DNA of 64,000 bases from a virus: the IMG/VR virus record IMGVR_UViG_3300050821_002136, positions 1 through 64,000 of that record; one strand, written 5' to 3'. The first letter of the stretch is position 1; each line of letters begins with the position of its first letter. Made by a program: the position numbers and the translations under genes. The notes under the pieces are model-generated. The model saw nothing but the letters and a program-made list of their open reading frames with translations. It did no database searches and had not been told where the DNA came from. Of this stretch, positions 2,952 through 63,864 are shown piece by piece.

Positions 2952-4373
2952 TTACTTACGCCAAGTGACTAGCTTATTCGTACCTTTAAGCCAAGCTTTT
3001 CCAGTGATGTATAGAAGCTGCTTAGGATCTTTGTCCCAATCAATGGCTTCCCACTTCGGCTTGGTCGCAACATACACAGGCTTACCAGAAGCTGCGGCCG
3101 TATCTTCTATCTTTGCTGCCGCAACCTTCTTCTCGGTAGCAGCGGCCACGCGGCCAGCTGCGGCTCCACCCTTTGCATAGCCGGGATACATCTTCTGGAC
3201 GGTGTCACGCACGATGTCTGCAGAAATAGACTGCACGCGAGCCTTGTGGTACTCTTCGATCTTGGCTCGATCAGGCTGTTTAGCTGCCCACATGGATTTC
3301 ATCTGTGCCTGATAAGCATTGTCCGCTTTTAGCGTTGCGTACAGGTTAGATTTGATCGTATTGCCAAGAGGAATCAGGTTTTCACGTCCGAAACCTTTGA
3401 AAAACGGCATTTTCAAGAATGTTCCAAGCTCTGCGCCGAGAGATTTGTTATTTACGCTCTCGCAGGACTTAGCAACGCTGTTTTTGAACTCTTCAGACTG
3501 ATTTGTCTTGAAAGTCTCCTGTTCCTTCATGAAAGCAGCGCGTTCAGCGTCCAAAGCCTTGCGCTCGGGGGAAACCACGGCATCCTTGGTCTTTTTGTTC
3601 TTGTCGCCAAGGTCTTTGTACCATGTTTTGAGATCTTCTGAGATTTCCTTAGCTGCGGCCAAGGCTTTTGCTGGATCTGGGTCAGAAAGTGCCTTAGCAA
3701 GGCCGTTAATGGCTCCCGGCAGGTTGGCAGTCTCCAGTCCCTCGAAGAAATGAGGAGCAAACGCGGCATAATAACCCTTTTCATCGTGGGCTTTCACTGC
3801 GTCCAAGAATGACGGGGCAAGTTTGCCAAGTGCGTCCAATTTTCCGTTGGATTTCAGGTCCTCAACGATATTTTGGATGAGCTGAGGGTCTCCAGAGTAG
3901 AGTTGAGTGTCACTGGCTTCTGCAGCGTGCACGGTGTTGGTCAGTTTCTCATATCCCTCGGCCCCACCTACGAGATCTGCGAATTCCTTCGCCTGTTGCA
4001 TCTCTTTTACGCCGCCTGGGTAGATGGCCTTAGCAGCTTCCCAGCGTTCAAACGCACCATGCAGCTGCTTTACTGCGTTACCGTTGGCAACGGGGTCCTG
4101 ATCACGAAAAGCCTTGAGGGCTTTGCGGATTTCCTGAGGAGTCTTATCGGTACCCGGAAGATCTTCTACCTTCGCTGCTGCTTCCTTGGGTGTTCCGTCA
4201 CTATTGTATTGCTGTTTAGCTTTTTCTGCAGGCTTTTCTGTAGTTTCTGCTCCGACTTCTGGGGTTTCTGCTGCTGCATCTATTTCAGGTGTGTCAACTA
4301 CTGCTGAGTCCACTACAGGCGCATCGGCAACTGCCGTGTCTAAACCTGCAAAGTCAATTACTGATTCTGACAT
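2952..4373 (-). CDS. Putative capsid scaffolding/assembly protein
   Basis: Acidic disordered N-terminus, helical Ala/Lys-rich body, between portal and capsid genes. Confidence 0.55.
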   Translation of the reverse strand: MSESVIDFAGLDTAVADAPVVDSAVVDTPEIDAAAETPEVGAETTEKPAEKAKQQYNSDGTPKEAAAKVEDLPGTDKTPQEIRKALKAFRDQDPVANGNAVKQLHGAFERWEAAKAIYPGGVKEMQQAKEFADLVGGAEGYEKLTNTVHAAEASDTQLYSGDPQLIQNIVEDLKSNGKLDALGKLAPSFLDAVKAHDEKGYYAAFAPHFFEGLETANLPGAINGLAKALSDPDPAKALAAAKEISEDLKTWYKDLGDKNKKTKDAVVSPERKALDAERAAFMKEQETFKTNQSEEFKNSVAKSCESVNNKSLGAELGTFLKMPFFKGFGRENLIPLGNTIKSNLYATLKADNAYQAQMKSMWAAKQPDRAKIEEYHKARVQSISADIVRDTVQKMYPGYAKGGAAAGRVAAATEKKVAAAKIEDTAAASGKPVYVATKPKWEAIDWDKDPKQLLYITGKAWLKGTNKLVTWRK

Positions 4374-4400
4374 TTTGTCTCCTTGAGTCTTTCTGAGTGC

Positions 4401-5027
4401 CTACGACCCGAAGGTCGCTGCTTTTTCAGCACCAAAAAGAACTTCGGTGCTGTAATTTCCTTCTGAGTCTACGTATATTCCCATGGCTCCCCCGGGCTCT
4501 ACCGATACTTCTGAGGATTCTGGTCTTCCCGCTGTTTTCCCTGCTATCAGTGTTTCTACAGTAACAATGTTGCTGTTGTGCGTGCAGTACACGGCTAGTT
4601 TGTCTTTTTTTAATTCTTTGTCAAAGTACTCGAATAGTCTTTGCTCCAGATCGTCTAAGGGTTCTCCTTCGGGAGGTACTAATTTTGGGTTATCTACAAA
4701 AAGATTAAGTATGTCTTCCCATTCATCTCTGTCCTTACCAGAGATCACACCCAAATTCCAAGAAATCAATGAGCGTTCTTGCTCTACTTCCAAGCCAAAA
4801 ACTGTTGCAATCTCATCAGCGGTTTGCACAGCTCTAAGCATGGGAGAAGCTACTACTCTCTTCACTTCCATGCCTTCATTCTTTAGGTCTTTGGCAGCTT
4901 TCTCGGCTTGCTTAACACCTTTTTCATCTAACGGAGGGTCCATTCGGCCACGGTACTTGTTATCTTCGTTGAGAGTAGTTGAGCCATGACGCTGTAGAAT
5001 CGCAATTAGCTTTTTGTCAGCCATCAT
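4401..5027 (-). CDS. Histidine phosphatase (phosphoglycerate mutase family)
   Basis: QRHGST..N, ASPMLRAVQTA, GEPLDDL..R, CTHNS motifs. Confidence 0.9.
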   Translation of the reverse strand: MMADKKLIAILQRHGSTTLNEDNKYRGRMDPPLDEKGVKQAEKAAKDLKNEGMEVKRVVASPMLRAVQTADEIATVFGLEVEQERSLISWNLGVISGKDRDEWEDILNLFVDNPKLVPPEGEPLDDLEQRLFEYFDKELKKDKLAVYCTHNSNIVTVETLIAGKTAGRPESSEVSVEPGGAMGIYVDSEGNYSTEVLFGAEKAATFGS

Positions 5028-5088
5028 GGCTCCTTTGTGTTATTTTGTTCACCCAAACTCCCCGAAAAAGGGTGTTTTGATGAAAAGA

Positions 5089-7746
5089 TTAACGTCTCAA
5101 CTGTCTGGGTTGACCCTGGGGTTGCCCGGGAGGTGCCTGGGATTGCGGTTTCTCCCCCTTCAATGCCTCAGGGATTGCTTTTTTCTGAACGGCCTGCTGT
5201 AGTTGTTCCTGATTATGCTGAGCAAAATCTGCAGGCGTTGCATTGATGCTCATTTTAGCAAGAGCCTGAACCGCTACTGCGGCTGGCATCTTAGAAACAT
5301 CAACGCTTATGCTCTCGGAAGGTGGTTTATCCGGTGGTGCATTAGCTGCGGCAATTTTCTTAGCCATAGCTACATGCTCTGTCCAATGCAAATGTACGTT
5401 GGCGAACGCTGCACGCTGTTGAGGAGTACCCCATTTGAATTTCTGGCCCTCTGAGCTGTTCATCCAGCTTAAACATGCCGAAGCTTCTAATGTATGCAGT
5501 TCACTTTCGTCCTGTGCGACCGGGACAGTGCTGACCATTGGGGGAAGCGTGGTCTGTTGCTGTTGTAACTGCTGAACCATGGCTATTTCTTTGGGATCAG
5601 CAGGTATTCCTTGAGCAACCTTGGGTCCCATTTCATCAGCGGCTTGTGCAAGTGTCTGCTGTATTTTAAGGAGCTGAGGATTCGGCATAGGGCCGGATCT
5701 CAAGAGCAACTCAAACTCCGACTTCTGTTTCGTAATAGAAGTTGCGCCAGTGACTTTGAAACCTTTCAAACGCAAACCGTCTTGCAACACAGGAAGATTC
5801 TCGGGAGAGAATATCCACGCTGCTAATGATGGATTAGCATTGCTTGTGTCTACTAAGCCTGTAAGCTTGGCTTCCCTTTGAGCAGAACTCTCGGGGAATG
5901 ACGGATCACTTTCTGGGTAGCAAAGAACATTGCCTGACAAATTGCTCGTGTTTACCGAAATACGTCCAATACCTTTGAACGTTTGTGAAATCTGTTTGCC
6001 TTCTCGGCAATCTGCCGCGCAACCAACTGCTTGTCTTGCGCACTCTGCAAAGAGTGCCTGGATATTGTTCCAAGGACACCCTATACGCTGCAGTGCTTGG
6101 TCCCTCTGTATCTGTGCATTACCTACTGTATTCTCACCAGTCGCCGCGCCAAACAATGATGGCAGTGCGCCACTAATCTCTTCTGAAAGATTAGTAATGA
6201 ACCATTTGATAAAATCAGCTAGAGACGCTTGCGGCTGAGGAGTAGGCTCGACCATGATGTACTGATCCATGGTTGTAAGCCCAGGTTGAGGTAGAAATGA
6301 TCCAGTGCTACCAGGGACATTGTTCTCGCTCTTAAGAACTTGTAGATCAAACGCGTCAGCATTCATCCACTTCTTAGGAACGGTACGTTTGAAGAAGTCA
6401 TCCTGCAGATCCACCCAGTCATTAATTCTTTTCTGAATAGAAATTAAGGAACTACCTAATGCTCTGCGATTTTGTCCTTTGCCTGTGAACGGATGGGCTA
6501 TTGCTAGATGGGCATCCATGCTCTCGTTTCTAGAGAATGCATAGTTAGCTCCGGCCTTTACTAACAAAGCTCCATTAGGAAACTTTTCAAGGAGTTCTGC
6601 GCGGACTGCGTCGTTTACTTTTTCGTCCATGAACATTGAAGGACGAAACCACGTATACTTTACAACCGTATGACGTTGTAGGGAATCTCCAGTTACGTAC
6701 GCTCCAAGCACAGCTTGCCTAGTGTTCTCTCGGGCAATCCTGTCCAATTCAACTTCTGTGTTTCCGTCTGAGCCAGTCCTAATTTTATCGGCAATCCACG
6801 GGAACTTAGCTTTTACAATGGCAACGTCTAGGTCCTCATAGAGCTGCACGAATTGCATGTCTTTGATGTTGTCTACTGCGATGGGTACCTTGTGATCCAA
6901 CTTTCCATGCAAGGTAGTGACTTCTCTTCCTCTGGGTTTCTTAGCAGGCTCAGGGGCTTCTGTGGTTTCTTCTTGCTCCTCGTCCTCTTCAGTCTCCGTG
7001 GGAGATTCTGTCTGTTCTAAGAAGGAGTCTAGGCCTTCTTGGCCTGTGGGTGCATCTTCTGGAGGATTGAGAATATCTTCGGCAGTGACTGGTGCAGTGT
7101 CTCCGTCGTCTCCATCAAACCCGTACAACTGGCCATTAAGCTCATAGCGCGTCCACGCTAACACTCGGTCTTCATTCCAGAAGATACGAGCGCAGTCGGT
7201 CAACAATGCATGTAAATTATTGTTACGCGACCAAATCTCTTTGAACTTGTCTGCTTCTTCTGCCGCAACTATGTCCGGCCCGTACTCTGGGTTGGCGGGA
7301 AAGAACTCTACCTTGGGGACTTCACGAGCAAGTGCGGATACAATGATGTCTCCTTTTGATCCGTACACATTCGTGTCATAGATGGTGTTGTTGTTCTTTT
7401 GAGAATTGGGTCCAAACCCTGAAGCCTGTCCAGGAAGAATCCATCCACCCTGCTTTCCTCTCAGTAGATGCTGATAACCTCTATCAAAGTGCAAAGCTTC
7501 CCAAGTTTGTTCGACTTCGAACCTACGCGCTGCAACGTCTGTCTTTGTGGCGATGATGTCCAGCTGCATAAGTACGCCCTGAGCATCTTCTGTTAAGTCT
7601 GCGAAAGGCTCGGAAGAATGAGGAAACGGGGCATAGACACCTAATGGGCTATCATTAGGAGACTCAGGTTTTACGTATGGCATGGGCATTGACGGAGCAT
7701 TGGTAGTCATGGTGTTTACGTCCTGCCCGGGTCCTTGGTCTGCCAT
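5089..7746 (-). CDS. Portal protein
   Basis: 885 aa downstream of TerL; SLISIQKRIN, LSEEISG..LFG, Q/P-rich C-terminus typical of P22/podovirus-like portals. Confidence 0.8.
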   Translation of the reverse strand: MADQGPGQDVNTMTTNAPSMPMPYVKPESPNDSPLGVYAPFPHSSEPFADLTEDAQGVLMQLDIIATKTDVAARRFEVEQTWEALHFDRGYQHLLRGKQGGWILPGQASGFGPNSQKNNNTIYDTNVYGSKGDIIVSALAREVPKVEFFPANPEYGPDIVAAEEADKFKEIWSRNNNLHALLTDCARIFWNEDRVLAWTRYELNGQLYGFDGDDGDTAPVTAEDILNPPEDAPTGQEGLDSFLEQTESPTETEEDEEQEETTEAPEPAKKPRGREVTTLHGKLDHKVPIAVDNIKDMQFVQLYEDLDVAIVKAKFPWIADKIRTGSDGNTEVELDRIARENTRQAVLGAYVTGDSLQRHTVVKYTWFRPSMFMDEKVNDAVRAELLEKFPNGALLVKAGANYAFSRNESMDAHLAIAHPFTGKGQNRRALGSSLISIQKRINDWVDLQDDFFKRTVPKKWMNADAFDLQVLKSENNVPGSTGSFLPQPGLTTMDQYIMVEPTPQPQASLADFIKWFITNLSEEISGALPSLFGAATGENTVGNAQIQRDQALQRIGCPWNNIQALFAECARQAVGCAADCREGKQISQTFKGIGRISVNTSNLSGNVLCYPESDPSFPESSAQREAKLTGLVDTSNANPSLAAWIFSPENLPVLQDGLRLKGFKVTGATSITKQKSEFELLLRSGPMPNPQLLKIQQTLAQAADEMGPKVAQGIPADPKEIAMVQQLQQQQTTLPPMVSTVPVAQDESELHTLEASACLSWMNSSEGQKFKWGTPQQRAAFANVHLHWTEHVAMAKKIAAANAPPDKPPSESISVDVSKMPAAVAVQALAKMSINATPADFAQHNQEQLQQAVQKKAIPEALKGEKPQSQAPPGQPQGQPRQLRR

Positions 7747-9339: not shown

Positions 9340-9741
9340 TTATCCTTTTGCGGCAGCAGCCGCCTTCTCTTCTTCTATTTCTTTTCTCATCTGCTCTTCG
9401 TGTTGGTCCTGGACTACCTGCCACCTAGATTTAGGGGCAGGGATCTCTGCGTAGGAGAAAAGGGGCTTGGTAGGTTTTTGGTAAGCAACAACCTCAGCTC
9501 CTGCTCGGGACGAGTGTGGCATGATTGTCATTTCGTACATGGTAACTTTGGACATGAGCAATTGCTTCTCTTCCCGTAGAGTTGCGACGAGGAGTGCTTG
9601 ATCTTGCAGCCGTTGTTCAAAGTCATTCCTGAGGTTTACCAGATCCAGTTCCAGGCGTTCTACGAGACGCGAGCCAAATAGATCCCGGAAGAATTGTCGT
9701 ACACCAGCTCCCCACGTTATAGTCCAGCTTTGCCCATCCAT
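9340..9741 (-). CDS. Coiled-coil protein following TerL
   Basis: RBS AAGGAG; overlaps TerL 3' end; heptad pattern. Confidence 0.7.
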   Translation of the reverse strand: MDGQSWTITWGAGVRQFFRDLFGSRLVERLELDLVNLRNDFEQRLQDQALLVATLREEKQLLMSKVTMYEMTIMPHSSRAGAEVVAYQKPTKPLFSYAEIPAPKSRWQVVQDQHEEQMRKEIEEEKAAAAAKG

Positions 9742-11384
9742 ACTGGTTGCTCCTTCTGCACAAATGGTGCGCCTTCGTTTACCTTGTCATGCGCCATTTT
9801 CAGCCTATAAAAATGGGCTGCTATTGGGTCCAAAGTTTTGGCGTGTTCCTCTATGGTAATGTCTTGGGGCTTATTCTTGCCTCTAAGCATTCCGTACAGA
9901 CCATACCTAAACGAATCATAACAATCGTCTCCCTTAGTACTCACCTTGAGAACGTCATCCATGTTGTCTGGATCACGCATGAGGGAAGGTATGGATTGGA
10001 TTATGTCTTTGCAGTTGTCTAGTATTACCAAATCTCCATTTTTAAAGAGATTGTACATTAAAGACGCACCGCCAACACGATCCATGGCTGCACGGGAGAC
10101 TGGGGGAAGTCCTAGGGCTCTTAATTCCTTGGAGTATTCATCTGCGGGCGTATGTGCTGTAACCTGTTTTGAGAATTTCTCATGTGAGAAGAATATCGCC
10201 TTAGGTATAGCTTCTTGTCCATTGGGCAGTTTGCACATGCTCTTAAATATGGTCGCCCATTCTTTGTGGGTTTTCCCACCCTGAGACACAGATTCCTTAA
10301 AGCATACTGTCTTTAGCTTGTAATTTGTACCAAGGGTTCTAACCAAGGCTTTAGTAAACAGATAAGCCGCATTGTGGTGGCCTCCCATCGCCCAGTCCTG
10401 ACTACCCCAAACAGGTTGCCAAGGTTGCCATATGATGGCTTCTGGATCTTCACGAAGATCTATGACATGCTCATACTCATCAAAGCACTCGAAGTATTGT
10501 CCCTCGACAACTCCATCTAATCCTAAAAGCTTCTTGTCACGCTGAGCTTTAGGGAGACTGTTCATCCTAGCAATGAAGCCAGGGTCCCTCTTTAGGAATT
10601 CTGGGTTATCCATTGCTGTAGAACGCTGGTAGGCATATAGGCGTGGGTCATATACGTTAACCCACTCTCCAGATTCTTTGTTCCACCAAGTACCGTTCGT
10701 ATCATCTCTACGACTTCCCTCAGGCCTCTCGAAAGGTTCCTTCTGAACGAACACCGTACGGTAGTACTCATAGTACGGACCAAGAGGGTTTGTGCAGCCA
10801 ACTATAACGGGTATTGGGAGATGCCCATGCTTGTTGGGCTTGCATGCTGCGTTGACGATGTTTCGGGAATACAGCATTCCCCATGCGTCCGAAGAAAACT
10901 GACCACACTCATCTACGAGGATGAAAGAGTAAGCAGAACCTAAATACTGTTCCACGTCTCTCATTTTCAAATTTTGGCAGTGACCAAAGACTACACGGGA
11001 ACCATTCACCATTGTAGCTACGTGCTTCGTCTGGTCGTAGTTATAAAGTTCAGGAGGAGTAAAGGTAATGAAGTCCTTTATGGCTCCAGCCTCCAACTCC
11101 TTAAAGGTACGTCTAAGCACAAGTATGTCGCAATTGTCATACGCCAAAGAATAATTCATTACAGCGTACATCAACCATCCTGTGGTCTTACCACTACGAA
11201 AGCCTCCAACGCTCAAGCATTGCGGAGCAATCGGCATTATATAAGGGATGCCGTCTCGTGTACGCACTTGCAGCAATTCAGTCTGTTTCGGCTGCAGTGT
11301 GAATATCTTCGAAAAATTAAGGGTGCCGTCTGCATTCAAATAGGGTGGGCGTTCCTTGACTTCCACAACCTTTTTACGAGGCAT
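9717..11384 (-). CDS. terL: Terminase large subunit
   Basis: QPKQ adenine motif, Walker A GGFRSGKT, Walker B FILVDE, CTNP motif III, nuclease GSQDW and DDCYDSFRY. Confidence 0.93.
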   Translation of the reverse strand: MPRKKVVEVKERPPYLNADGTLNFSKIFTLQPKQTELLQVRTRDGIPYIMPIAPQCLSVGGFRSGKTTGWLMYAVMNYSLAYDNCDILVLRRTFKELEAGAIKDFITFTPPELYNYDQTKHVATMVNGSRVVFGHCQNLKMRDVEQYLGSAYSFILVDECGQFSSDAWGMLYSRNIVNAACKPNKHGHLPIPVIVGCTNPLGPYYEYYRTVFVQKEPFERPEGSRRDDTNGTWWNKESGEWVNVYDPRLYAYQRSTAMDNPEFLKRDPGFIARMNSLPKAQRDKKLLGLDGVVEGQYFECFDEYEHVIDLREDPEAIIWQPWQPVWGSQDWAMGGHHNAAYLFTKALVRTLGTNYKLKTVCFKESVSQGGKTHKEWATIFKSMCKLPNGQEAIPKAIFFSHEKFSKQVTAHTPADEYSKELRALGLPPVSRAAMDRVGGASLMYNLFKNGDLVILDNCKDIIQSIPSLMRDPDNMDDVLKVSTKGDDCYDSFRYGLYGMLRGKNKPQDITIEEHAKTLDPIAAHFYRLKMAHDKVNEGAPFVQKEQPVWMGKAGL

Positions 11385-44019: not shown

Positions 44020-44294
44020 AGTTATGGATGTATGAAGCTGAGGTACGAGTTGCAAGACCCGGTTTCGATACCGGCAGGTCCACCACAACGCTTCAGGTAT
44101 AACGGCATTACCGGCGTACACCCGGAGAGCGGGTCTCGCTGAAGCGTTTTGATGGGCCTGAAAGGTTTCGATTGCGACTACGAGACAGCAGTGGACATCC
44201 CGAGATGACGTGGCCCTCGTTAAAAGGACACGTAACAACCAACCGCGACTGAAAAGCCGATGGTTATGGCAGCTGCCGCAGGGCGCTAGCCATA
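44020..44294 (+). ncRNA. ssrA: Circularly permuted (two-piece) tmRNA
   Basis: Acceptor piece ending CAGGTCC-A-CCA (44075-44085) precedes 5' GGGCCTG (44154); G3.U70; helix 2, pk1 and tag ORF 44245-44289. Confidence 0.9.
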
Positions 44295-50000: not shown

Positions 50001-50243
50001 ATGAAAACAAAAGCCATCATTGAAGGTTTACAAGTCCTTCTTCCATTCTACAACGACCAAGACGGGTTCCATAACGGAGCTGAACATGATACCTTCTATG
50101 CTTACGCTACAGACACTGAGCTGCCAGAAGCAGCGGTAAAATGGTTGATAGAATTGGGATGGTTTCAACCGGATGTTGAGTATGAAGACGACTTCTTGCC
50201 AGAACATTACGATCCCTCTGAGGGGTGGGTAGCTTACTTATAG
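50001..50243 (+). CDS. Small acidic hypothetical protein
   Basis: AAGGAG RBS; GAEHD..YA..LIELGWF. Confidence 0.7.
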   Translation: MKTKAIIEGLQVLLPFYNDQDGFHNGAEHDTFYAYATDTELPEAAVKWLIELGWFQPDVEYEDDFLPEHYDPSEGWVAYL

Positions 50244-50254
50244 AAAGGGTAACC

Positions 50255-52303
50255 ATGTCGAAAGCAATTCCCGAGAACCTGCGAACCAGCAACGCTCTGA
50301 AATTCATAATCGAGCAAGGCTGGAACTGGCAGGGCGATGGCAGCGGTGGACAAATTCAAATAGAGACGTGCCCTTTCTGCAACAAAAAAGACTTCAAGCT
50401 CTATATGGCAGTCGGAGACCCAAGAGAGACCAGTAGAGATGGCCTTTGGTTCTGTCACCACGGTTCCTGCGCTAAGACTGGGAACCTCCGTACGCTGGCC
50501 GAACATGTAGGCGTACGCATAGCCGGTGTGGACTCGCGCAAGGAGTGGGCCGGGAGTGGGGACAGCAAGCCGGACACTCTGCCTGATGTTGAGCTGTGCC
50601 ATGCAACCCTACTAGGTGACGCGGAAGCTATGGATTATTTGTTGAACGTCAGAGGCTTCTCAAAGGAGATCATTGAAAAACAAAAGCTTGGACTCAAAGA
50701 GAAAGTCTGGTTCCGTGAAGCGGGGGAATCGAAAGCCCTGGTCATACCCTATCTCGTTGGCGGAAATGTTGTCTTCGCAAAATTCAGAACGCTTCCTCCG
50801 AAACCAAAAGACTTTGTCACACCTTCTGGCTGGGAAGCTCCTCTCTATAATGGAGAAATTCTCCAAGAAGGACTCAACGAAGTCATCTTCGTAGAGGGCG
50901 AAGCAGACGCCATAAGTATGATGTCTAATGGTGTAGAGAATGTTGTGGGCGTACCTGGGGCCAATGTTAAGAAGGCCGCATGGATCGACACTCTGGACAA
51001 GATCGCACCTAAGAAGATCTACATCCTCTACGACAACGACAAAGTAGGCAAGAAGGCCGCGCAGGAAATCGCATCACGCATCGGCATAGACAAGTGCCTG
51101 AAGCTGGTGCTTCCGCCATTCAGCGTAACGCTAGAAGGCGTAACCCGAGACGGCAAGGACATCAATGAGTGGTTCCGCTACGGTGGGGGAACCTTAGAGG
51201 TGTTCAACAAACTGAAGGAGTCCGCAGTCCTGTTCGATGTGACTGGTGTGACCTCTTCAGTGGATGCCTTGACGCAGCTCGAAGACGAATTGAATGGCAA
51301 GGTTGATCTGGCCCCTAAGTACGTATTCCAATGGCCGGAACTCAACAAGCTGATCGGAATGGAAGACGGTGATGTGCTCGATATCGTTGCGCCGGAGAAG
51401 GTAGGGAAGACGACCTTCGGCCTCAACATACTTGACCACATGGTCGCCGCATACGGTGAGGACGGCCTGCTTGTGTGCCTTGAGATGACTCAGGCTAGAC
51501 TGGCACGCAAGTGGGTTGCCCTCGTGACTGGCTTCGAAGACACTCTGACTGAACCTGGGACAGAGGAATCGAAGCTTAAGTTAGCTGAGCTGAAGGGGTG
51601 CGTAGTAAAGGCACGCTCGATTCAACAGAGTCGTGGCGCAGACCTGTACTTCGCATACCCTCAGCTTGTGAAGGAGCCAGAAGATGTTTACAAACTTGTC
51701 CGAGACTGCATTCGTCGTTACGGTGTCAAATGGGTCATGTTTGATAATCTGCAAAGATTGTGCGATGATACACTCAAAAACCAAGGCCACCGTACAGTGC
51801 AGCTTTCTCAAATCTCCAAAAACTTCGCAAAACTTGCCAAGGACTACCGTATCAAACTTATTCGCATCCTTCAGCCCAAACGAATAATGCCCGGGGCAAC
51901 CATCAGCACCAACGACGTAGACGGAAGCTCACAGATTGCTAAGGACTGCGATGGCATGATAACGTTGTGGCGCAGTGTAGTAGGAGAGATGAAGAAGTCT
52001 GAATGGGAGACCCAACAACAAGGCTTCGAAGAAAGCAATGAATCCTTCGAGCCTGTCATGAAGGTCACCGTGGGGCTCTCTCGCTATTCAGCTGGAGGCT
52101 CTACTAAGCTCTTCTATGATGGAGCCCGATCCCAGGTGCGTTCACTGCCTGAAAGCCAAAAGGCACAGATGAATGCGAACCGAGACTACAACAAGCTGGT
52201 AGCCAATAACATCCCCATGGAAGGTGGAGGTGTTCTGCATGTCGTACCAGAGGAAAACCAAGCCGTAGCCGTCGTTGCAACAGAGTCAGACATCACAATC
52301 TAA
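50255..52303 (+). CDS. Primase-helicase (T7 gp4/Twinkle-like)
   Basis: Zn finger CPFC..CHHGSC, TOPRIM VEGEAD and YDND, GKDINE, Walker A APEKVGKTT, LEM, FDNL. Confidence 0.93.
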   Translation: MSKAIPENLRTSNALKFIIEQGWNWQGDGSGGQIQIETCPFCNKKDFKLYMAVGDPRETSRDGLWFCHHGSCAKTGNLRTLAEHVGVRIAGVDSRKEWAGSGDSKPDTLPDVELCHATLLGDAEAMDYLLNVRGFSKEIIEKQKLGLKEKVWFREAGESKALVIPYLVGGNVVFAKFRTLPPKPKDFVTPSGWEAPLYNGEILQEGLNEVIFVEGEADAISMMSNGVENVVGVPGANVKKAAWIDTLDKIAPKKIYILYDNDKVGKKAAQEIASRIGIDKCLKLVLPPFSVTLEGVTRDGKDINEWFRYGGGTLEVFNKLKESAVLFDVTGVTSSVDALTQLEDELNGKVDLAPKYVFQWPELNKLIGMEDGDVLDIVAPEKVGKTTFGLNILDHMVAAYGEDGLLVCLEMTQARLARKWVALVTGFEDTLTEPGTEESKLKLAELKGCVVKARSIQQSRGADLYFAYPQLVKEPEDVYKLVRDCIRRYGVKWVMFDNLQRLCDDTLKNQGHRTVQLSQISKNFAKLAKDYRIKLIRILQPKRIMPGATISTNDVDGSSQIAKDCDGMITLWRSVVGEMKKSEWETQQQGFEESNESFEPVMKVTVGLSRYSAGGSTKLFYDGARSQVRSLPESQKAQMNANRDYNKLVANNIPMEGGGVLHVVPEENQAVAVVATESDITI

Positions 52304-53301: not shown

Positions 53302-53667
53302 ATGCCTTGGCCTATAAAGCACGGACTTGCTTTCCATCCACTCTACCGTGTATGGATGTCCGTAAAGCAAAAGTGCACTAACCCAAAAAGCCTTGTTTAT
53401 AAAGACTACGGTGGGCGCGGCATTAAAATGCACAAACCTTGGGAAAGAGACGTACGTCGGTTTGTGCACTACGTTATGGAAAACCTAGGAGAACGCCCTT
53501 CAAAACGGCACTCTTTGGATCGTAGAAATAACAATGGTCATTACGTGCCTGGAAACATAAGATGGGCAACATGGGAAGAACAAGCTAGAAATCGAAGACC
53601 CGTTCGTTGCTTGGGAAACTACTCTGATGCAGAGCTACTACAAGAAATAAAGAAACGAGGAATATGA
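53302..53667 (+). CDS. HNH homing endonuclease
   Basis: KCTNP..YGGRGI..SLDRRNNNGHYVPGNIRWAT..QARN. Confidence 0.88.
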   Translation: MPWPIKHGLAFHPLYRVWMSVKQKCTNPKSLVYKDYGGRGIKMHKPWERDVRRFVHYVMENLGERPSKRHSLDRRNNNGHYVPGNIRWATWEEQARNRRPVRCLGNYSDAELLQEIKKRGI

Positions 53668-54785
53668 AAAAGGCCAATCACCAAGCAAACGTTGTAAGGA
53701 TTGCGGAAGTATTACCACACTCTAATGCCGACAGCTTGGAAATCATACACATCGGCGCATTCCAAGTAGTGACCAAGAAGGGCAACTTCAAAACTGGGGA
53801 TCTCGGTGTCTACATTCAGCCTGACAGCGTCGTACCTCAGACTGAGCCCTTCAAGTTCATTTGGGAAACCTATGTAGGCTTGGATGGTACTGTGCCTGAG
53901 AAACGCAGGCGCATCACCGTAAAGCGTTTGCGAAAGGAGTGGAGCGAAGGATTGCTCATGCCTCTCTCTGACTTCCCTGAGCTTTCTGTGTTCAATCTAC
54001 CTGAAGGCGCAGATGTCTCAGAACTCCTGGGCATCACTCACTATGACCCAGACAAAGGCAAGGAACCTGCTGCGGACAACGAGACCTTCAAGAAGAAGCG
54101 TAGCAAGTACCCAAGGAGTCTCAAGGGATGGTGGTATCTCATCCTGCACAAGCTGGGCATTTACACCAGCGGTGGGCAGAACCATGGGTTCGACAATGAG
54201 GAGGGAACAGACATGCCCGTGTTCGACGTAGATGCGTTCAAGCACTACAAGAACGCATTCGAACGTGAGGAGCTGGTAGAGGTAACTGAGAAGATCCATG
54301 GGAGCAATGCACGCTTCGTGTTCCGAGAGGGACACATGTACGCAGGGTCACGAACTCAGTGGAAAGCTGAGAACGCCAATTGTATCTGGCGCAATGTGCT
54401 CAGGGCTCAGCCATGGATTGAAGCATGGTGCCGTACGCATGAGGGCTATGGGCTCTACGGTGAGGTCACTCCCACCCAGGGTGAGAATTTTCAATATGGA
54501 AGCGCTGAACCTCAGTTCTTCCCATTTGACATTAGGACCCCTGAGGGAACTTGGCTGGAAGAAATAGAAACCGGACCAGCACAATGGGTACCCGTGCTAT
54601 ACCAAGGTCCGTTCTACTGGGAAGAAATCAGTAAGTTGGTTGACGGACAGACCGCTGTGCCAAATGCTAAGGGCATCCGAGAAGGCATAGTGATTCGTCC
54701 AGTGAAAGAACGGCATGTACGCGGCCTCGGCCGATTAATTCTCAAATGTGTCTCAAATTCGTACCTCGAAAAGGATGGAAAATAA
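53664..54785 (+). CDS. ATP-dependent RNA ligase (DRB0094/Rnl5-like)
   Basis: N-terminal OB domain (HSNADSLE..GDLGVYI.PDS..SEGL), TEKIHG, YGE, FDI, REGIV, K. Confidence 0.9.
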   Translation: MKKANHQANVVRIAEVLPHSNADSLEIIHIGAFQVVTKKGNFKTGDLGVYIQPDSVVPQTEPFKFIWETYVGLDGTVPEKRRRITVKRLRKEWSEGLLMPLSDFPELSVFNLPEGADVSELLGITHYDPDKGKEPAADNETFKKKRSKYPRSLKGWWYLILHKLGIYTSGGQNHGFDNEEGTDMPVFDVDAFKHYKNAFEREELVEVTEKIHGSNARFVFREGHMYAGSRTQWKAENANCIWRNVLRAQPWIEAWCRTHEGYGLYGEVTPTQGENFQYGSAEPQFFPFDIRTPEGTWLEEIETGPAQWVPVLYQGPFYWEEISKLVDGQTAVPNAKGIREGIVIRPVKERHVRGLGRLILKCVSNSYLEKDGK

Positions 54786-56811: not shown

Positions 56812-57900
56812 ATGGCGTTTGGAAAAAAGAAAGAGGAGCAGAAGGCTCCTAAGGTGGTGGTCACAGCTCCGACTAGCGATGTTGAGAAGTTCAAATCATT
56901 GTTTGCTGTGTCCAAAGCTCTGGATGCCAAGCATGAGACGAGCAATTCCTTGATGCGCTTGGGGGCCAAGAACATCATACGCATCCCTAGCATCAGCACC
57001 AAGTTGCCCACTGTGGATTACGACATGCTAGGCTGCGGTGGTGTACCTAGAGGCAGAGTAGTTGAGATCTTCGGACCTGAATCCTCCGGGAAAACTACAT
57101 GGTGCTTATGGCTTGCTGCACAGGCTCAGGCTCAGGGTGATGTAGTTGTTTATATTGACGCAGAACATGCACTAGACATAGGCTATGCTCAGCAGCTAGG
57201 CGTAAATGTGGACAACGTACTTATTAGCCAGCCCAACAGCGGAGAGCAAGCCTTGCAAGTTGCCGATGCAGTTGTGGAATCAAAATGTGCAGGACTAATT
57301 ATCGTGGATTCAGTAGCAGCTCTCGTACCTGAGGCTGAGTTGGCAGGAGACATTGGAGATGCGCATGTTGGCCTACAAGCCCGTATGATGTCGCAAGCTC
57401 TGCGTATACTCACAGCCAAGGCAGACGTAAACAAAGTAACGGTAGTCTTCATCAATCAAATACGCGAGAAGATCGGTGTCATGTTTGGCAACCCTGAGAC
57501 AACGACGGGAGGTAGGGCACTGAAGTTTTACTCTAGCATTCGAATTGACATACGCCGTAAGGAAGAGATCAAGCAAGGGACGGAACTGGTAGGCCACACG
57601 ATTCGCCTAAAGGCAGTCAAGAATAAAGTGGGCACACCTCTCAGGGAGACCATGATTGACCTGTACTACCCTGGCACTAGCTTTACCCCGGGCTTTGATC
57701 ACATTGGAGACCTGATCACCTTTGCTTCTAAACGGGGCCTGTTCGAGATGTCTGGATCGTGGTATAATCTCAATGGTGAGAGACTAGCCAACGGCTTAGC
57801 GAATCTTAAGGAACGCCTGCGAGAGGACGACGCAATCCTCTTACATCTACGCAAGAAAATCGAGAAGTTATCCGAGGCAGATACTGAGGTGAAAATATGA
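56812..57900 (+). CDS. recA: RecA recombinase
   Basis: GPESSGKTT, DAEHALD, DSVAAL, ARMMSQALR, FINQIR, GGRALKFY. Confidence 0.97.
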   Translation: MAFGKKKEEQKAPKVVVTAPTSDVEKFKSLFAVSKALDAKHETSNSLMRLGAKNIIRIPSISTKLPTVDYDMLGCGGVPRGRVVEIFGPESSGKTTWCLWLAAQAQAQGDVVVYIDAEHALDIGYAQQLGVNVDNVLISQPNSGEQALQVADAVVESKCAGLIIVDSVAALVPEAELAGDIGDAHVGLQARMMSQALRILTAKADVNKVTVVFINQIREKIGVMFGNPETTTGGRALKFYSSIRIDIRRKEEIKQGTELVGHTIRLKAVKNKVGTPLRETMIDLYYPGTSFTPGFDHIGDLITFASKRGLFEMSGSWYNLNGERLANGLANLKERLREDDAILLHLRKKIEKLSEADTEVKI

Positions 57901-59958: not shown

Positions 59959-60399
59959 ATGGCAATTGACAACATCATCGACCAACTCAAAAGAGACGAA
60001 GGCCTACGCTTAGACGTTTACATGGACACCGTGGGCAAGCGCACCATCGGCTACGGCCACAACCTTGACGCCAACCCTATACCCGCATTGGTGACTCCTA
60101 TCAACGAGACTCTAGCGAGTCAAATCCTAGGTGTAGACGTAGAGCGCATCTCTAGATTCCTCGTGTCTCAGCTGCCTTGGGTAGTAAGCCTAGACGATGC
60201 GCGTCTTGGCGTCATGCAGAATATGAGCTTCAACCTGGGAGTCCCGGGACTATTGCAGTTCCACCATGACTTGGCAGATACGCAGGCCGGTAACTACGAG
60301 CAGGCCGCTGCTGATATGAAAGCATCCAAGTGGTATACTGAAGTTGGAGACCGAGCTGTACGCTTGGTTGAACAAATGAGGAGCGGAATATGGCAGTAA
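59959..60399 (+). CDS. Lysozyme/endolysin (T4-like, GH24)
   Basis: DEGLR..Y.DT.G..TIGYGHNL, MSFNLG, SKWY..V..RA. Confidence 0.93.
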   Translation: MAIDNIIDQLKRDEGLRLDVYMDTVGKRTIGYGHNLDANPIPALVTPINETLASQILGVDVERISRFLVSQLPWVVSLDDARLGVMQNMSFNLGVPGLLQFHHDLADTQAGNYEQAAADMKASKWYTEVGDRAVRLVEQMRSGIWQ

Positions 60400-60820: not shown

Positions 60821-61126
60821 GAAAGGAAAACCCATGCTAGACGGAGAGAAGATCAATCACGCACTCAAGACGGGTACCATGGATGACATGGGCACACGCA
60901 TGGAGCACCTAACACAGCTCTATGAGCTTTGGAAGACTGGGCTGGATGTCATAGAACGCTTCGATAAGAACAGTCCTTTCTACGAAGAAAGGAAGCAAGA
61001 ACTTGAAAGTGCCTTGAAGTTGCTGGCTTATCATTTTGAGAAGGACTACTCAGAAAATTCCTACAGGCAAGCGGTAGATACCCTTCCTGCAAACGCAGAG
61101 GACTTCAAGGACCCGGAGAAATCATA

Positions 61127-62149
61127 ATGAGCACAGCTGGAACGCAGCGCAAACTCGACATCACGCAGAGCAGCAAGCTTTATGCACAACTAGCCAAGGA
61201 CTTCTCAGCTAAGATCGTAGGCCAAGAGGAAGCTACTCAGGCCCTTCTGAATATTGTTGAGTCCCACCAAGCAGGCTTCTCGGATGCCAGCCACCCCGCT
61301 GGCGTAGCTCTGTTCCTCGGTCCAACAGGCACTGGCAAGACGCTAGTGGCTGAGACCCTGGCCGCATCCTTACTTGGTAGCAAGCTCGCCTGCCTGCGTA
61401 TTGACTGCGCTGAGTACCAGCACGGACATGAGATCGCCAAATTAGTGGGATCTCCCCCGGGATACTTGGGCCATCGTGAGACGCACCCGCTGCTGACACA
61501 GGAAGCACTTAACCAGTGGCACACGGACAAGATGAAGCTTTCCATTCTTCTCTTCGACGAGATCGAGAAGGCCAGTGATACGCTCTGGGCTTTGCTACTA
61601 GGCATCCTCGATAATGCTACGGTGACCTTAGGAGACAACCGCAAGGTTAACTTTAGCAATGTGATCATTGTCATGACAAGCAACCTCGGCGCACGTAAGA
61701 TGTCTAGTCGTGACATAGGATTCATGGACCCATCCGAAGAGACTGACAACGCTCGCATGGAGACGCAGGCCAGGAGCGCAGCAAAGAGCAAGTTCTCACC
61801 TGAGTTCATGAATCGTTTGCAGTCCATAGTGGTCTTCAAGACTTTGTCCGAGGAGCAAATTGAGAACATCCTTGAACTTGAATTGAAGGCGCTAGAGTAT
61901 CGCTTGTTCATGGTCAGCAAACCGTTCTTCACCATAGCCGTATCACCTAAAGCCAAACGTACGTTGCTGGCTGAGGGCTACGACAAGGCCTACGGTGCGC
62001 GGTATCTCAAACGCACTATCGAGAGACGCATACAGCAGCCGCTGGCAAGACTAGCAGCCAGTGGGCAAGTAGCAGAGCACGACAAAATCATCATTGATGA
62101 CCTCGGAGACAAGAGCTTCGAGTTCTACGTACAGGGGAGAAACTTATGA
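61127..62149 (+). CDS. Stand-alone ClpA/B/C D2-type AAA+ ATPase
   Basis: IVGQEEA, GPTGTGKT, GSPPGYLG, LFDEIEKA, MTSN, IGF, FSPEFMNR, YGARYLKR; no N-domain or D1. Confidence 0.92.
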   Translation: MSTAGTQRKLDITQSSKLYAQLAKDFSAKIVGQEEATQALLNIVESHQAGFSDASHPAGVALFLGPTGTGKTLVAETLAASLLGSKLACLRIDCAEYQHGHEIAKLVGSPPGYLGHRETHPLLTQEALNQWHTDKMKLSILLFDEIEKASDTLWALLLGILDNATVTLGDNRKVNFSNVIIVMTSNLGARKMSSRDIGFMDPSEETDNARMETQARSAAKSKFSPEFMNRLQSIVVFKTLSEEQIENILELELKALEYRLFMVSKPFFTIAVSPKAKRTLLAEGYDKAYGARYLKRTIERRIQQPLARLAASGQVAEHDKIIIDDLGDKSFEFYVQGRNL

Positions 62150-63171: not shown

Positions 63172-63864
63172 TTATTCTACAAGTTTTGGTACATACGTAC
63201 GCGCTGCATCGAGGTGCTGAGCATCGAAGTTTAGAGAAAACCCAATGGCACTTGTATCTCCGTTGTCCTCTTCAGCAGAATACGTGACCAAGCCTACAAT
63301 TTCCCCTTTGGTATTGAATATGGCTGAGCCACTATCGCCATGGTCTACTTTCAGAGAATAGCAAGCCTCTCCAGCTGCCACGTCCAATTCGCTGTAGTCG
63401 TCACACTCAAGCACTTTACCGTAACGAGGAATGGCTGGGTACTCTCCTCGGATGTCTCCATAGATGGTGACGGTCTCTCCAACCATTGCGGCTTTGGTCT
63501 TCACTGTTTCGATGTGAGTGAACGGAGACCCGTAAAACAAGTAGATCACATGATCTCGGTTGTCAGTTGCGGAAGCTATGAGGATGTGCTTCTCTGTAGA
63601 GAGATCAAAGGATACCAACGTTCCTTCTCCAGATTCGTTACAATGTTCGGCCGTAAGAAAAGCGTTCGGCCCAATTGCTGTGCTTGTACAATCTCCTAGT
63701 TTCTTTCCCTTCTCATCAAAGAAGGTTACCATGTGGGAAGTACGTTGCTCTGTTGTGGGGGCTGAGTGTTTGTGAGTCTTGAAGTGAGGAACCTCGTGAG
63801 GTCCAAGGAGGAACAACGAGAGAAGTCCCACGGAAAGAAAATAGTAGAAGTCTAAGCGAGTCAT
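63172..63864 (-). CDS. Trypsin-like serine protease
   Basis: LTAEHC, D, HGDSGS; N-terminal hydrophobic anchor. Confidence 0.9.
   Translation of the reverse strand: MTRLDFYYFLSVGLLSLFLLGPHEVPHFKTHKHSAPTTEQRTSHMVTFFDEKGKKLGDCTSTAIGPNAFLTAEHCNESGEGTLVSFDLSTEKHILIASATDNRDHVIYLFYGSPFTHIETVKTKAAMVGETVTIYGDIRGEYPAIPRYGKVLECDDYSELDVAAGEACYSLKVDHGDSGSAIFNTKGEIVGLVTYSAEEDNGDTSAIGFSLNFDAQHLDAARTYVPKLVE

Follow-up and report, generated by a model that had tools for sequence, protein, structure and literature searches.

A D2-only Clp/Hsp100 ATPase family with a candidate ClpP-docking loop in large phages and Acidobacteriota, and its association with phage tmRNA genes

To our knowledge, all characterised bacterial partners of the peptidase ClpP are either ClpX or the two-ring unfoldases ClpA, ClpC and ClpE. 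ClpX has a single AAA+ ring, docks on ClpP by means of IGF loops and degrades ssrA-tagged proteins, and the IGF-type loops of both ClpX and ClpA dock in the hydrophobic H sites of ClpP while remaining flexible (PMC9035409). An engineered protein, BAP, in which the ClpP-binding loop of ClpA was grafted on ClpB D2, also binds ClpP (PMC4023160). Jumbo phages encode Clp ATPases, sometimes together with transfer-messenger RNA (tmRNA), examples being the 'ClpA-like protein' of Asteriusvirus, the ClpXP of phage G and Sinorhizobium phage AP-J-162 (PMC12484599, PMC11242549). Here we describe the gene at positions 61127-62149 of a 64,000-nucleotide window; the window covers the first 64 kb of a 108,277-bp IMG/VR virus record from an uncultured phage (IMGVR_UViG_3300050821_002136, labelled G000), which is rated 98% complete; all completeness figures given here are CheckV estimates. 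Its product, called mini-Clp below, resembles only the second AAA+ ring (D2) of the two-ring proteins and carries a candidate ClpP-docking loop. As a naturally occurring D2 ring with a ClpP loop, mini-Clp would represent a third architecture of ClpP partner; it would then be the natural counterpart of engineered BAP and a minimal system for asking what role D1 plays.

Profile searches, PDB matches and alignments confirmed the proposal of an earlier note on this DNA that the open reading frame (ORF) encodes a 340-amino-acid (aa) D2-only Clp ATPase, consisting solely of the D2 AAA+ module and the D2-small domain of Clp/Hsp100 proteins, with its ATPase motifs intact. The gene and the parts that matter for its function are as follows.

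61115..61118, plus strand: GGAG Shine-Dalgarno-like box, 8 nt 5' of the mini-Clp ATG, read directly
61127..62149, plus strand: mini-Clp gene, 340-aa D2-only Clp/Hsp100 AAA+ ATPase (Pfam, PDB, NCBIfam, BLASTP, AlphaFold2 and Foldseek)
61319..61342, plus strand: Walker A, GPTGTGKT, residues 65-72
61448..61486, plus strand: pore-1 loop GSPPGYLGHRETH, residues 108-120, a family signature, with a low predicted local distance difference test (pLDDT) score
61547..61570, plus strand: Walker B, LLFDEIEK, residues 141-148
61715..61723, plus strand: I197-G198-F199, candidate ClpP-docking tripeptide, in a flexible loop of residues 196-203
61814..61816, plus strand: Arg finger R230 (EFMNRL)
61844..62095, plus strand: D2-small (lid) domain, residues 240-323, containing sensor-2
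62000-62002, plus strand: sensor-2 GAR, R292

Pfam placed AAA_2 on residues 57-233 (8.9e-38) and ClpB_D2-small on residues 240-323 (3.9e-18), and the same scan gave a single AAA_2 module with no Clp_N (PF02861), D1, M-domain, ankyrin domain or zf-C4_ClpX. The best PDB matches were ClpB D2 (4lj4, 1.5e-59), ClpC (6em9, 2e-58) and ClpA (3e-48), all in the D2 part only; taken together, the PDB and NCBIfam matches covered just the D2 halves of ClpB, ClpC, ClpA, Hsp104, ClpV, ClpK and ClpG, and mini-Clp fell far under the full-length NCBIfam equivalog cut-offs for ClpA, ClpB, ClpV, ClpK and ClpG. Sensor-1 is N186 in the alignments. Across about 150 family sequences, Walker A and B, sensor-1, the Arg finger, sensor-2 and the pore Tyr are all near-invariant, and the PPGYLGHRET pore loop is almost unchanged in phage and bacterial members alike. 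An anti-phage defence AAA+ protein (Dodola DolB or PDC-M37B) was also considered and rejected: these models matched partially, with 84 and 59 bits and over residues 15-197 only, and more weakly than the Clp D2 matches.

Compared with the described Clp proteins, mini-Clp is closest to the D2 rings of the class I Clp/Hsp100 proteins (ClpA, ClpB and ClpC), of whose defining features it has the D2 module and lacks the two rings and the N-domain. It is 35% identical to ClpA D2 over 292 residues and shares with ClpA and ClpC D2 the Walker A and B motifs, GYxG pore, sensor-1, Arg finger, sensor-2 and D2-small domain, with the tripeptide at the same aligned position. Unlike ClpA and ClpC, mini-Clp and its close relatives have neither an N-domain nor a D1 ring, the pore signature is GYLGHRETH instead of GYVG[FY], and the score of mini-Clp against the ClpA equivalog is 241 bits, where the cut-off is 993. 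ClpB is among the best sequence and structure matches; however, ClpB has an N-domain, D1 and an M-domain and no ClpP loop, whereas mini-Clp has the loop and no room for an M-domain. ClpX, with its single ring, IGF loops and ClpP, is the functional analogue predicted for mini-Clp from its sequence, but it belongs to another AAA+ lineage (42.2 bits for mini-Clp against a cut-off of 359, NF003745) and has a C4 zinc-binding N-domain and an RKH loop that mini-Clp lacks. On these alignments, mini-Clp is a descendant of the D2 ring of ClpA/B/C-type Hsp100s.

The candidate docking loop was located by alignment. BLASTP against Escherichia coli ClpA (K-12 record) paired TSNLGARKMSSRDIGF with TTNAGVRETERKSIGL without a gap, so that SSRDIGF lies ungapped on ERKSIGL and I197-G198-F199 takes the position of ClpA I617-G618-L619, the ClpP-docking tripeptide. 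The placing of IGF at a 'P-loop position' in the earlier note thus holds for the ClpP-binding loop, not for the Walker A P-loop, and its statement that ClpB has no such loop agrees with a 6-residue gap in E. coli ClpB where mini-Clp carries the IGF loop. The ClpP-partner unfoldases ClpA, ClpC, ClpE and ClpX share an [L/I/V/M]-G-[F/L] loop tripeptide after sensor-1, and mini-Clp has one as well. A hydrophobic-Gly-F/Y/L tripeptide is kept in 74 of 77 phage homologues and in all 80 bacterial homologues compared, while the flanking loop residues vary freely; in an alignment of 31 sequences, the catalytic residues and G198 are invariant and the tripeptide occurs as IGF, LGF, MGF, FGF, YGF, IGY or IGI. 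By this measure of conservation, the tripeptide is under selection across the whole mini-Clp family while the loop around it varies.

An AlphaFold2 monomer model built on the 31-sequence alignment reached a mean pLDDT of 84, and values below 50 were confined to two segments, the pore loop (residues 106-116) and the IGF loop (residues 196-203), as would be expected of mobile functional loops in such a model. In Foldseek, the top ranks went to the D2 rings of Staphylococcus aureus ClpC in the MecA/ClpC/ClpP complex and to crystal structures of ClpB D2, and the matches included the BAP entries 4d2q and 4d2x.

Since the tripeptide is conserved in a variable, disordered loop and the ATPase and pore equipment is kept, an active ClpP-feeding unfoldase is the best-supported reading of these data, and mini-Clp is probably an enzymatically active single-ring unfoldase of the Clp/Hsp100 type that uses host ClpP. 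Six subunits would form a ring with no D1 tier, the Tyr113 pore loops (GYLGHRETH) would grip a polypeptide and translocate it with ATP as the driving force, the flexible I-G-F loops would insert in the hydrophobic pockets on the apical face of the host ClpP tetradecamer, and the putative substrates threaded in this way would be degraded by ClpP. With the motor supplied by the phage and the peptidase by the host, the result would be a ClpP protease of phage-controlled specificity during infection. No phage-encoded ClpP, SmpB or ClpS was found in G000 and its four nearest relatives, so the peptidase would have to be that of the host. Three other mini-Clp phages encode a bona fide ClpP (E values 1e-76 to 1e-83), in one case 3.2 kb upstream of mini-Clp and on the same strand.

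The earlier note had suggested that the protein either hijacks or poisons host ClpP. Partnership is the natural reading given the conserved IGF and the lack of a phage ClpP, and the conservation of every ATPase and pore motif makes poisoning unlikely. The poisoning idea amounts to a blocker or decoy that fills the docking pockets of host ClpP, displaces ClpX and ClpA and so protects phage proteins, with no need for translocation. The presence of the IGF loop and the absence of a ClpP gene of its own in the window phage would suit such a role, as would the closest precedent for a phage that modulates the Clp proteases of its host, namely the adaptor-like protein of phage SPO1, which acts on ClpCP (PMC6873191). 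A passive plug, however, would not need motor motifs and a pore Tyr conserved over about 150 sequences, and the family is also a conserved chromosomal gene in bacteria; we regard blocking as highly improbable.

The protein database held at least 120 family proteins of 275-385 aa (mostly 337-385 aa) with 52-91% identity, several of them on contigs of about 103-107 kb, and a scan of IMG/VR with two family-specific peptides (GYLGHRET; E[FY]QH[SG]HE) returned 82 phage contigs, the shortest being fragments and the longest 463 kb. For bacteria, a scan that took one genome for each GTDB species gave at least 594 matches. The best 80 of these are 50-57% identical, lie on large chromosomal contigs and all come from Acidobacteriota (Terriglobia, Bryobacterales), except for one metagenome-assembled genome of Dormibacterota; unnamed D2-only clusters in the ESM Atlas come from viruses, Acidobacteriota, Verrucomicrobiota and Actinomycetota. 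The family is thus not phage-specific: its conservation on Acidobacteriota chromosomes, and its presence in other phyla, make it a borrowed or shared cellular module and not a phage invention. Its abundance in Acidobacteriota adds to its interest, as this major phylum of soil bacteria has been little studied.

The bacterial members are also D2-only (maximal ORFs of 381-501 aa), have an LGF, MGF or FGF loop and often end in an Ala/Pro-rich C-terminal tail. Their conserved neighbour is a divergently transcribed DUF4015 glycoside-hydrolase-like gene. Terriglobia genomes with mini-Clp contain a single canonical ClpP and two Hsp100s of full length, which makes mini-Clp an additional paralogue in them. 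In a FastTree tree rooted on the D2 rings of E. coli ClpA and ClpB, with the best 80 matches as its bacterial side, a short-branched Acidobacteriota clade is nested among longer-branched phage sequences; because only those 80 bacterial matches were sampled, no direction of transfer between phages and Acidobacteriota is claimed.

Close longer relatives (47-57% identity) owe their extra length to inteins (Hom_end_hint, LAGLIDADG_3, Intein_splicing) or, in rare cases, to TPR or receiver domains. No D1 fusion was found among them, and identity to true two-ring Clp proteins does not exceed 42%. Because the longer relatives are never D1 fusions, the single ring is the native architecture of the family. 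A split ClpA with its D1 elsewhere, or a fused long form, was therefore rejected, the search for longer forms having given intein, TPR and receiver variants only. The Clp proteins of cultured jumbo phages differ in the same respect, being two-ring ClpA-like proteins (762 aa in the E. coli jumbo phage Ecwhy_1) or ClpX/ClpP, with identity to mini-Clp of 42% or less. Among 50,697 deposited phage records in INPHARED, there was no DNA match and no close protein relative of mini-Clp, and a full-text literature search found no account of a D2-only family with a ClpP loop. Mini-Clp and its relatives are, judging by sequence, an uncharacterised family that combines D2 AAA+, D2-small and a ClpP-docking loop with neither an N-domain nor a D1 ring.

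Many homologues of 690-850 aa (P0241-P0262; 828-aa ORFs at loci L074 and L078) have homing-endonuclease inteins inside the AAA+ module, with the domains PF05203, PF14528, PF05204 and PF14890, and several terminase homologues of the window's phage clade also have intein domains (P0146, P0157 and P0171). Three rare proteins (P0247, P0263 and P0265) join the D2-only module to TPR repeats at the N-terminus or to a receiver domain of the response-regulator kind; in bacteria, these additions might serve in substrate selection or regulation.

Several observations weigh against ClpP feeding. By D2 profile score, mini-Clp is about equally close to ClpB (248.8 bits) and ClpA (241 bits), the tripeptide is missing from 3 of the 77 phage homologues, the bacterial members showed no conserved operon with clpP, and no conserved adaptor gene was found beside mini-Clp in related loci. 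Furthermore, D1 is important in the assembly of ClpA hexamers, and hence a D2-only protein may assemble poorly. Two of these points, the score slightly nearer to ClpB and the lack of clpP linkage in bacteria, would also fit a ClpP-independent remodeller or disaggregase, that is, a single-ring Hsp100 acting like human CLPB/Skd3, or like ClpX alone on MuA, with no proteolysis. Skd3 is itself a natural single-ring disaggregase with only a D2-type AAA+ module, and it was matched in the PDB (8zrs, 3e-31). However, Skd3 has ankyrin repeats and is not known to have a ClpP-docking tripeptide, whereas mini-Clp has the tripeptide and neither an ankyrin domain nor an M-domain, and remodelling would leave unexplained a near-universal hydrophobic-G-aromatic tripeptide sited exactly where ClpB has a deletion. 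We consider a pure remodeller unlikely, and a ClpP-feeding motor the better account of the loop.

The earlier note had also reported a phage tmRNA gene about 17 kb from mini-Clp and proposed the two as partners. The tmRNA gene is real: Rfam RF04321 matches it with 66.6 bits against a gathering score of 47, and a hairpin and then a T-run follow 3' of the tag frame, which reads GCG ACT GAA AAG CCG ATG GTT ATG GCA GCT GCC GCA GGG CGC TAG.

44026..44294, plus strand: circularly permuted tmRNA (RF04321 match at 44026-44283), candidate partner of mini-Clp
44245..44289, plus strand: tmRNA tag frame, ATEKPMVMAAAAGR-stop, read directly; the frame ends in TEKPMVMAAAAGR-stop

ARAGORN made no call of this permuted tmRNA in the window and also missed those of G011, G012 and G018 in the loci tried first, and surveys by ARAGORN only will therefore undercount this permuted lineage.

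The co-occurrence check that the earlier note had called for favours an association. A tmRNA is present in 23 of the 46 records of mini-Clp phages that reach 60 kb or more (22 permuted, above the Rfam cut-off, and one standard) and in 14 of the 21 that are rated at least 90% complete. Close relatives of the large terminase (TerL) in IMG/VR are all short fragments, and a control by tRNA pattern was used in place of a terminase-matched one: 25 phage records of at least 56 kb chosen only by a common tRNA D-arm sequence, none of which has mini-Clp. A tmRNA was found in 7 of these 25 (3 permuted and 4 standard) and in 2 of the 11 complete ones. The difference is better than chance for tmRNA in complete genomes (14/21 vs 2/11, Fisher p=0.023) and for permuted tmRNA in all records (p=0.0037), in small samples of phylogenetically non-independent phage records, two of the pattern-scan samples being arbitrary and not random. 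A baseline of 28% in large tRNA-bearing phages is not negligible, so the enrichment is real but moderate. In the reverse direction, 30 phage records chosen by a tmRNA 3'-end pattern contained 11 permuted tmRNAs, none of them (0/11) with mini-Clp. Of 55 records without mini-Clp, only 2 have ClpX, each together with a tmRNA, and 3 have other Clp D2 homologues. A rule that tmRNA phages always carry a Clp unfoldase was thus rejected; together with the permuted tmRNAs of the reverse test, these counts indicate that tmRNA phages generally do not need mini-Clp.

The carrier phages are diverse. A terminase detectably similar to that of the window was found in 3 of 45 carrier phages, and the GC (guanine plus cytosine) content of those compared ranges from 32% to 55%. 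The proteins in common with G000 number 24/148 for G034, 17/148 for G011, 17/148 for G017 and 4/148, or 3%, for G028; between G000 and G028, mini-Clp is by far the best match. In the clade of G028, for which there are at least three distinct sequences, a single cell-wall hydrolase gene separates mini-Clp from a tmRNA upstream of it, with tmRNA and mini-Clp on the same strand. A low-GC (32%) clade has the gene order permuted tmRNA, secreted cell-wall hydrolase (PF07486), mini-Clp, an 85-aa zinc-ribbon protein (PF09723) and a P-loop (GxxGxGKT) protein of about 250 aa (loci L045, L046, L047, L051 and L065, at 3100-5300). The tmRNAs of that clade also score as beta- or alpha-proteobacterial two-piece tmRNAs (RF01850, RF01849).

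The tags encoded by these tmRNAs are distinctive. All 22 readable tags in mini-Clp phages (ARAGORN calls together with the tags of the window and G018) belong to a single type, A[M/F] and then an Ala-rich run, which can be written ...AM[AGS]AAA, with ATTKPLAMAAAA, ANAPKAMAMAAAA and ANTNVLAMSAAA as examples. Ten of the 22, again counting the window and G018, are extended by G-R/V/C/A, as in AETKPLAMAAAAGR and ANDNTVVTPKAKAMGAAAGV. These endings (...AAAAGR, ...AAAGV, ...AAAGC and ...AAAGA) all occur in one clade of the mini-Clp tree, at the following loci.

44245-44289, plus strand: G-capped tag of the window
L085, L086, L090, L095, L099, L100, L103, L104 and L513: G-capped tags of other phages

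The Gly-X cap should remove the C-terminal Ala-Ala-COOH that ClpX reads. Fifteen tags from tmRNA phages without mini-Clp include none of this type (0/15) and are conventional, e.g., ANDEVFALAA, ANDNVAFALAA and ADIELLAA. Exhaustive IMG/VR scans with two exact tag codings (AMAAAA-stop and MxAAAGR-stop) gave 12 tmRNAs; all 7 in records at least 80% complete belong to mini-Clp phages (7/7), and the other 5 are in fragments rated 7-54% complete. One mini-Clp phage has a one-piece standard tmRNA (G029:C1:31464-31821, L106) whose tag, AKPLAMYAMA, resembles those of the permuted tmRNAs, which suggests that both tmRNA topologies occur in one phage tmRNA lineage. G052 is a complete 99-kb phage that lacks mini-Clp; about 200 bp downstream of its permuted tmRNA, which has the tag ANDEVFALAA, a weak ClpP-family ORF begins (G052:C1:49151-49993, 41 bits).

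These data bear on whether mini-Clp is a dedicated reader of a private phage tmRNA tag (...AMAAAA; here ...AAAAGR) that delivers tagged proteins to ClpP. This would be a special case of ClpP feeding and not an alternative to ClpP docking, and we hold it only tentatively. In its favour are the enrichment of tmRNA in mini-Clp phages over the controls, the restriction of the tag type to mini-Clp phages among the records at least 80% complete, the co-occurrence across nearly unrelated phages and the near-adjacency of the two genes in one clade. On the other hand, the partnership is not obligatory, as no tmRNA occurs in 7 of the 21 complete mini-Clp phages and tmRNA phages without mini-Clp are common. 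In the window, 17 kb separate the two genes. Bacterial members coexist with ordinary one-piece tmRNAs (tag ANQQMAYAA), and the substrate channel shows no adaptation peculiar to the phages, as phage and bacterial members have the same pore loop. In addition, 12 of the 22 tags have ordinary Ala-Ala-like ends that host ClpX could read, and G000, G011, G017 and G034 share replication genes, so that part of the association reflects common descent. The tag-reader idea is clearly alive and better supported than when it was proposed, although we would still not expect it to be right.

A broader possibility, also doubtful at present, is that mini-Clp and a private, mostly two-piece tmRNA lineage constitute a mobile tag-and-degrade module moving between otherwise unrelated large phages. 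In such a module, the tags, often capped with Gly-Arg/Val/Cys/Ala, might be hidden from host ClpX and form a degron read only by the phage motor, which we put forward as a conceivable but not a probable arrangement. If true, ribosome rescue and amino-acid recycling would be taken from host control by the relabelling of stalled nascent chains. The purpose of phage tmRNA genes is an old open question on which the phage mini-Clp copies bear, and if the distinctive tags are mini-Clp substrates, they would make up the first virus-encoded pair of degron and protease adaptor for trans-translation.

The surroundings of mini-Clp are a plus-strand block of phage genes from the replication and lysis region. 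Farther upstream are the large terminase and also a DNA polymerase, a ribonucleotide reductase and a helicase.

9717-11384, minus strand: large terminase, farther upstream of mini-Clp
50225-52303, plus-strand block: primase/helicase
53664-54785, plus-strand block: RNA ligase
56812-57900, plus-strand block: RecA/UvsX-like recombinase
within the plus-strand block near mini-Clp: endonuclease VII
within the plus-strand block near mini-Clp: deoxynucleoside monophosphate (dNMP) phosphatase
59959-60399, plus-strand block: lysozyme
60834..61127, plus strand: 97-aa helical ORF abutting the mini-Clp start, an unsupported adaptor candidate
63172-63864, minus strand: 230-aa trypsin-like serine protease (PF13365, PF00089)

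The ATG of mini-Clp shares one base with the TAA stop of the preceding ORF, and the 97-aa product of 60834-61127, which has no meaningful Pfam or PADLOC match, was considered as a coupled adaptor. This was rejected: in 12 related loci, a stretch of 1.2-1.8 kb containing other genes separates mini-Clp from the homologue of this ORF upstream.

Two further proteins lie close to the gene. The serine protease, 1 kb downstream of mini-Clp, has a hydrophobic N-terminus and homologues in G011 and at loci L007-L009. Just outside the window, on the minus strand, is a 535-aa protein with an N-terminal helix-turn-helix (HTH) at G000:C1:64820-66427 (L553:820-2427). A chaperonin/GroEL assignment of this protein in G000, G017 and G034 was rejected in favour of an HTH protein. 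It is 53-61% identical among these three phages, which otherwise share only 11-16% of their genes, and is flanked by NUMOD3 homing-endonuclease-like ORFs.

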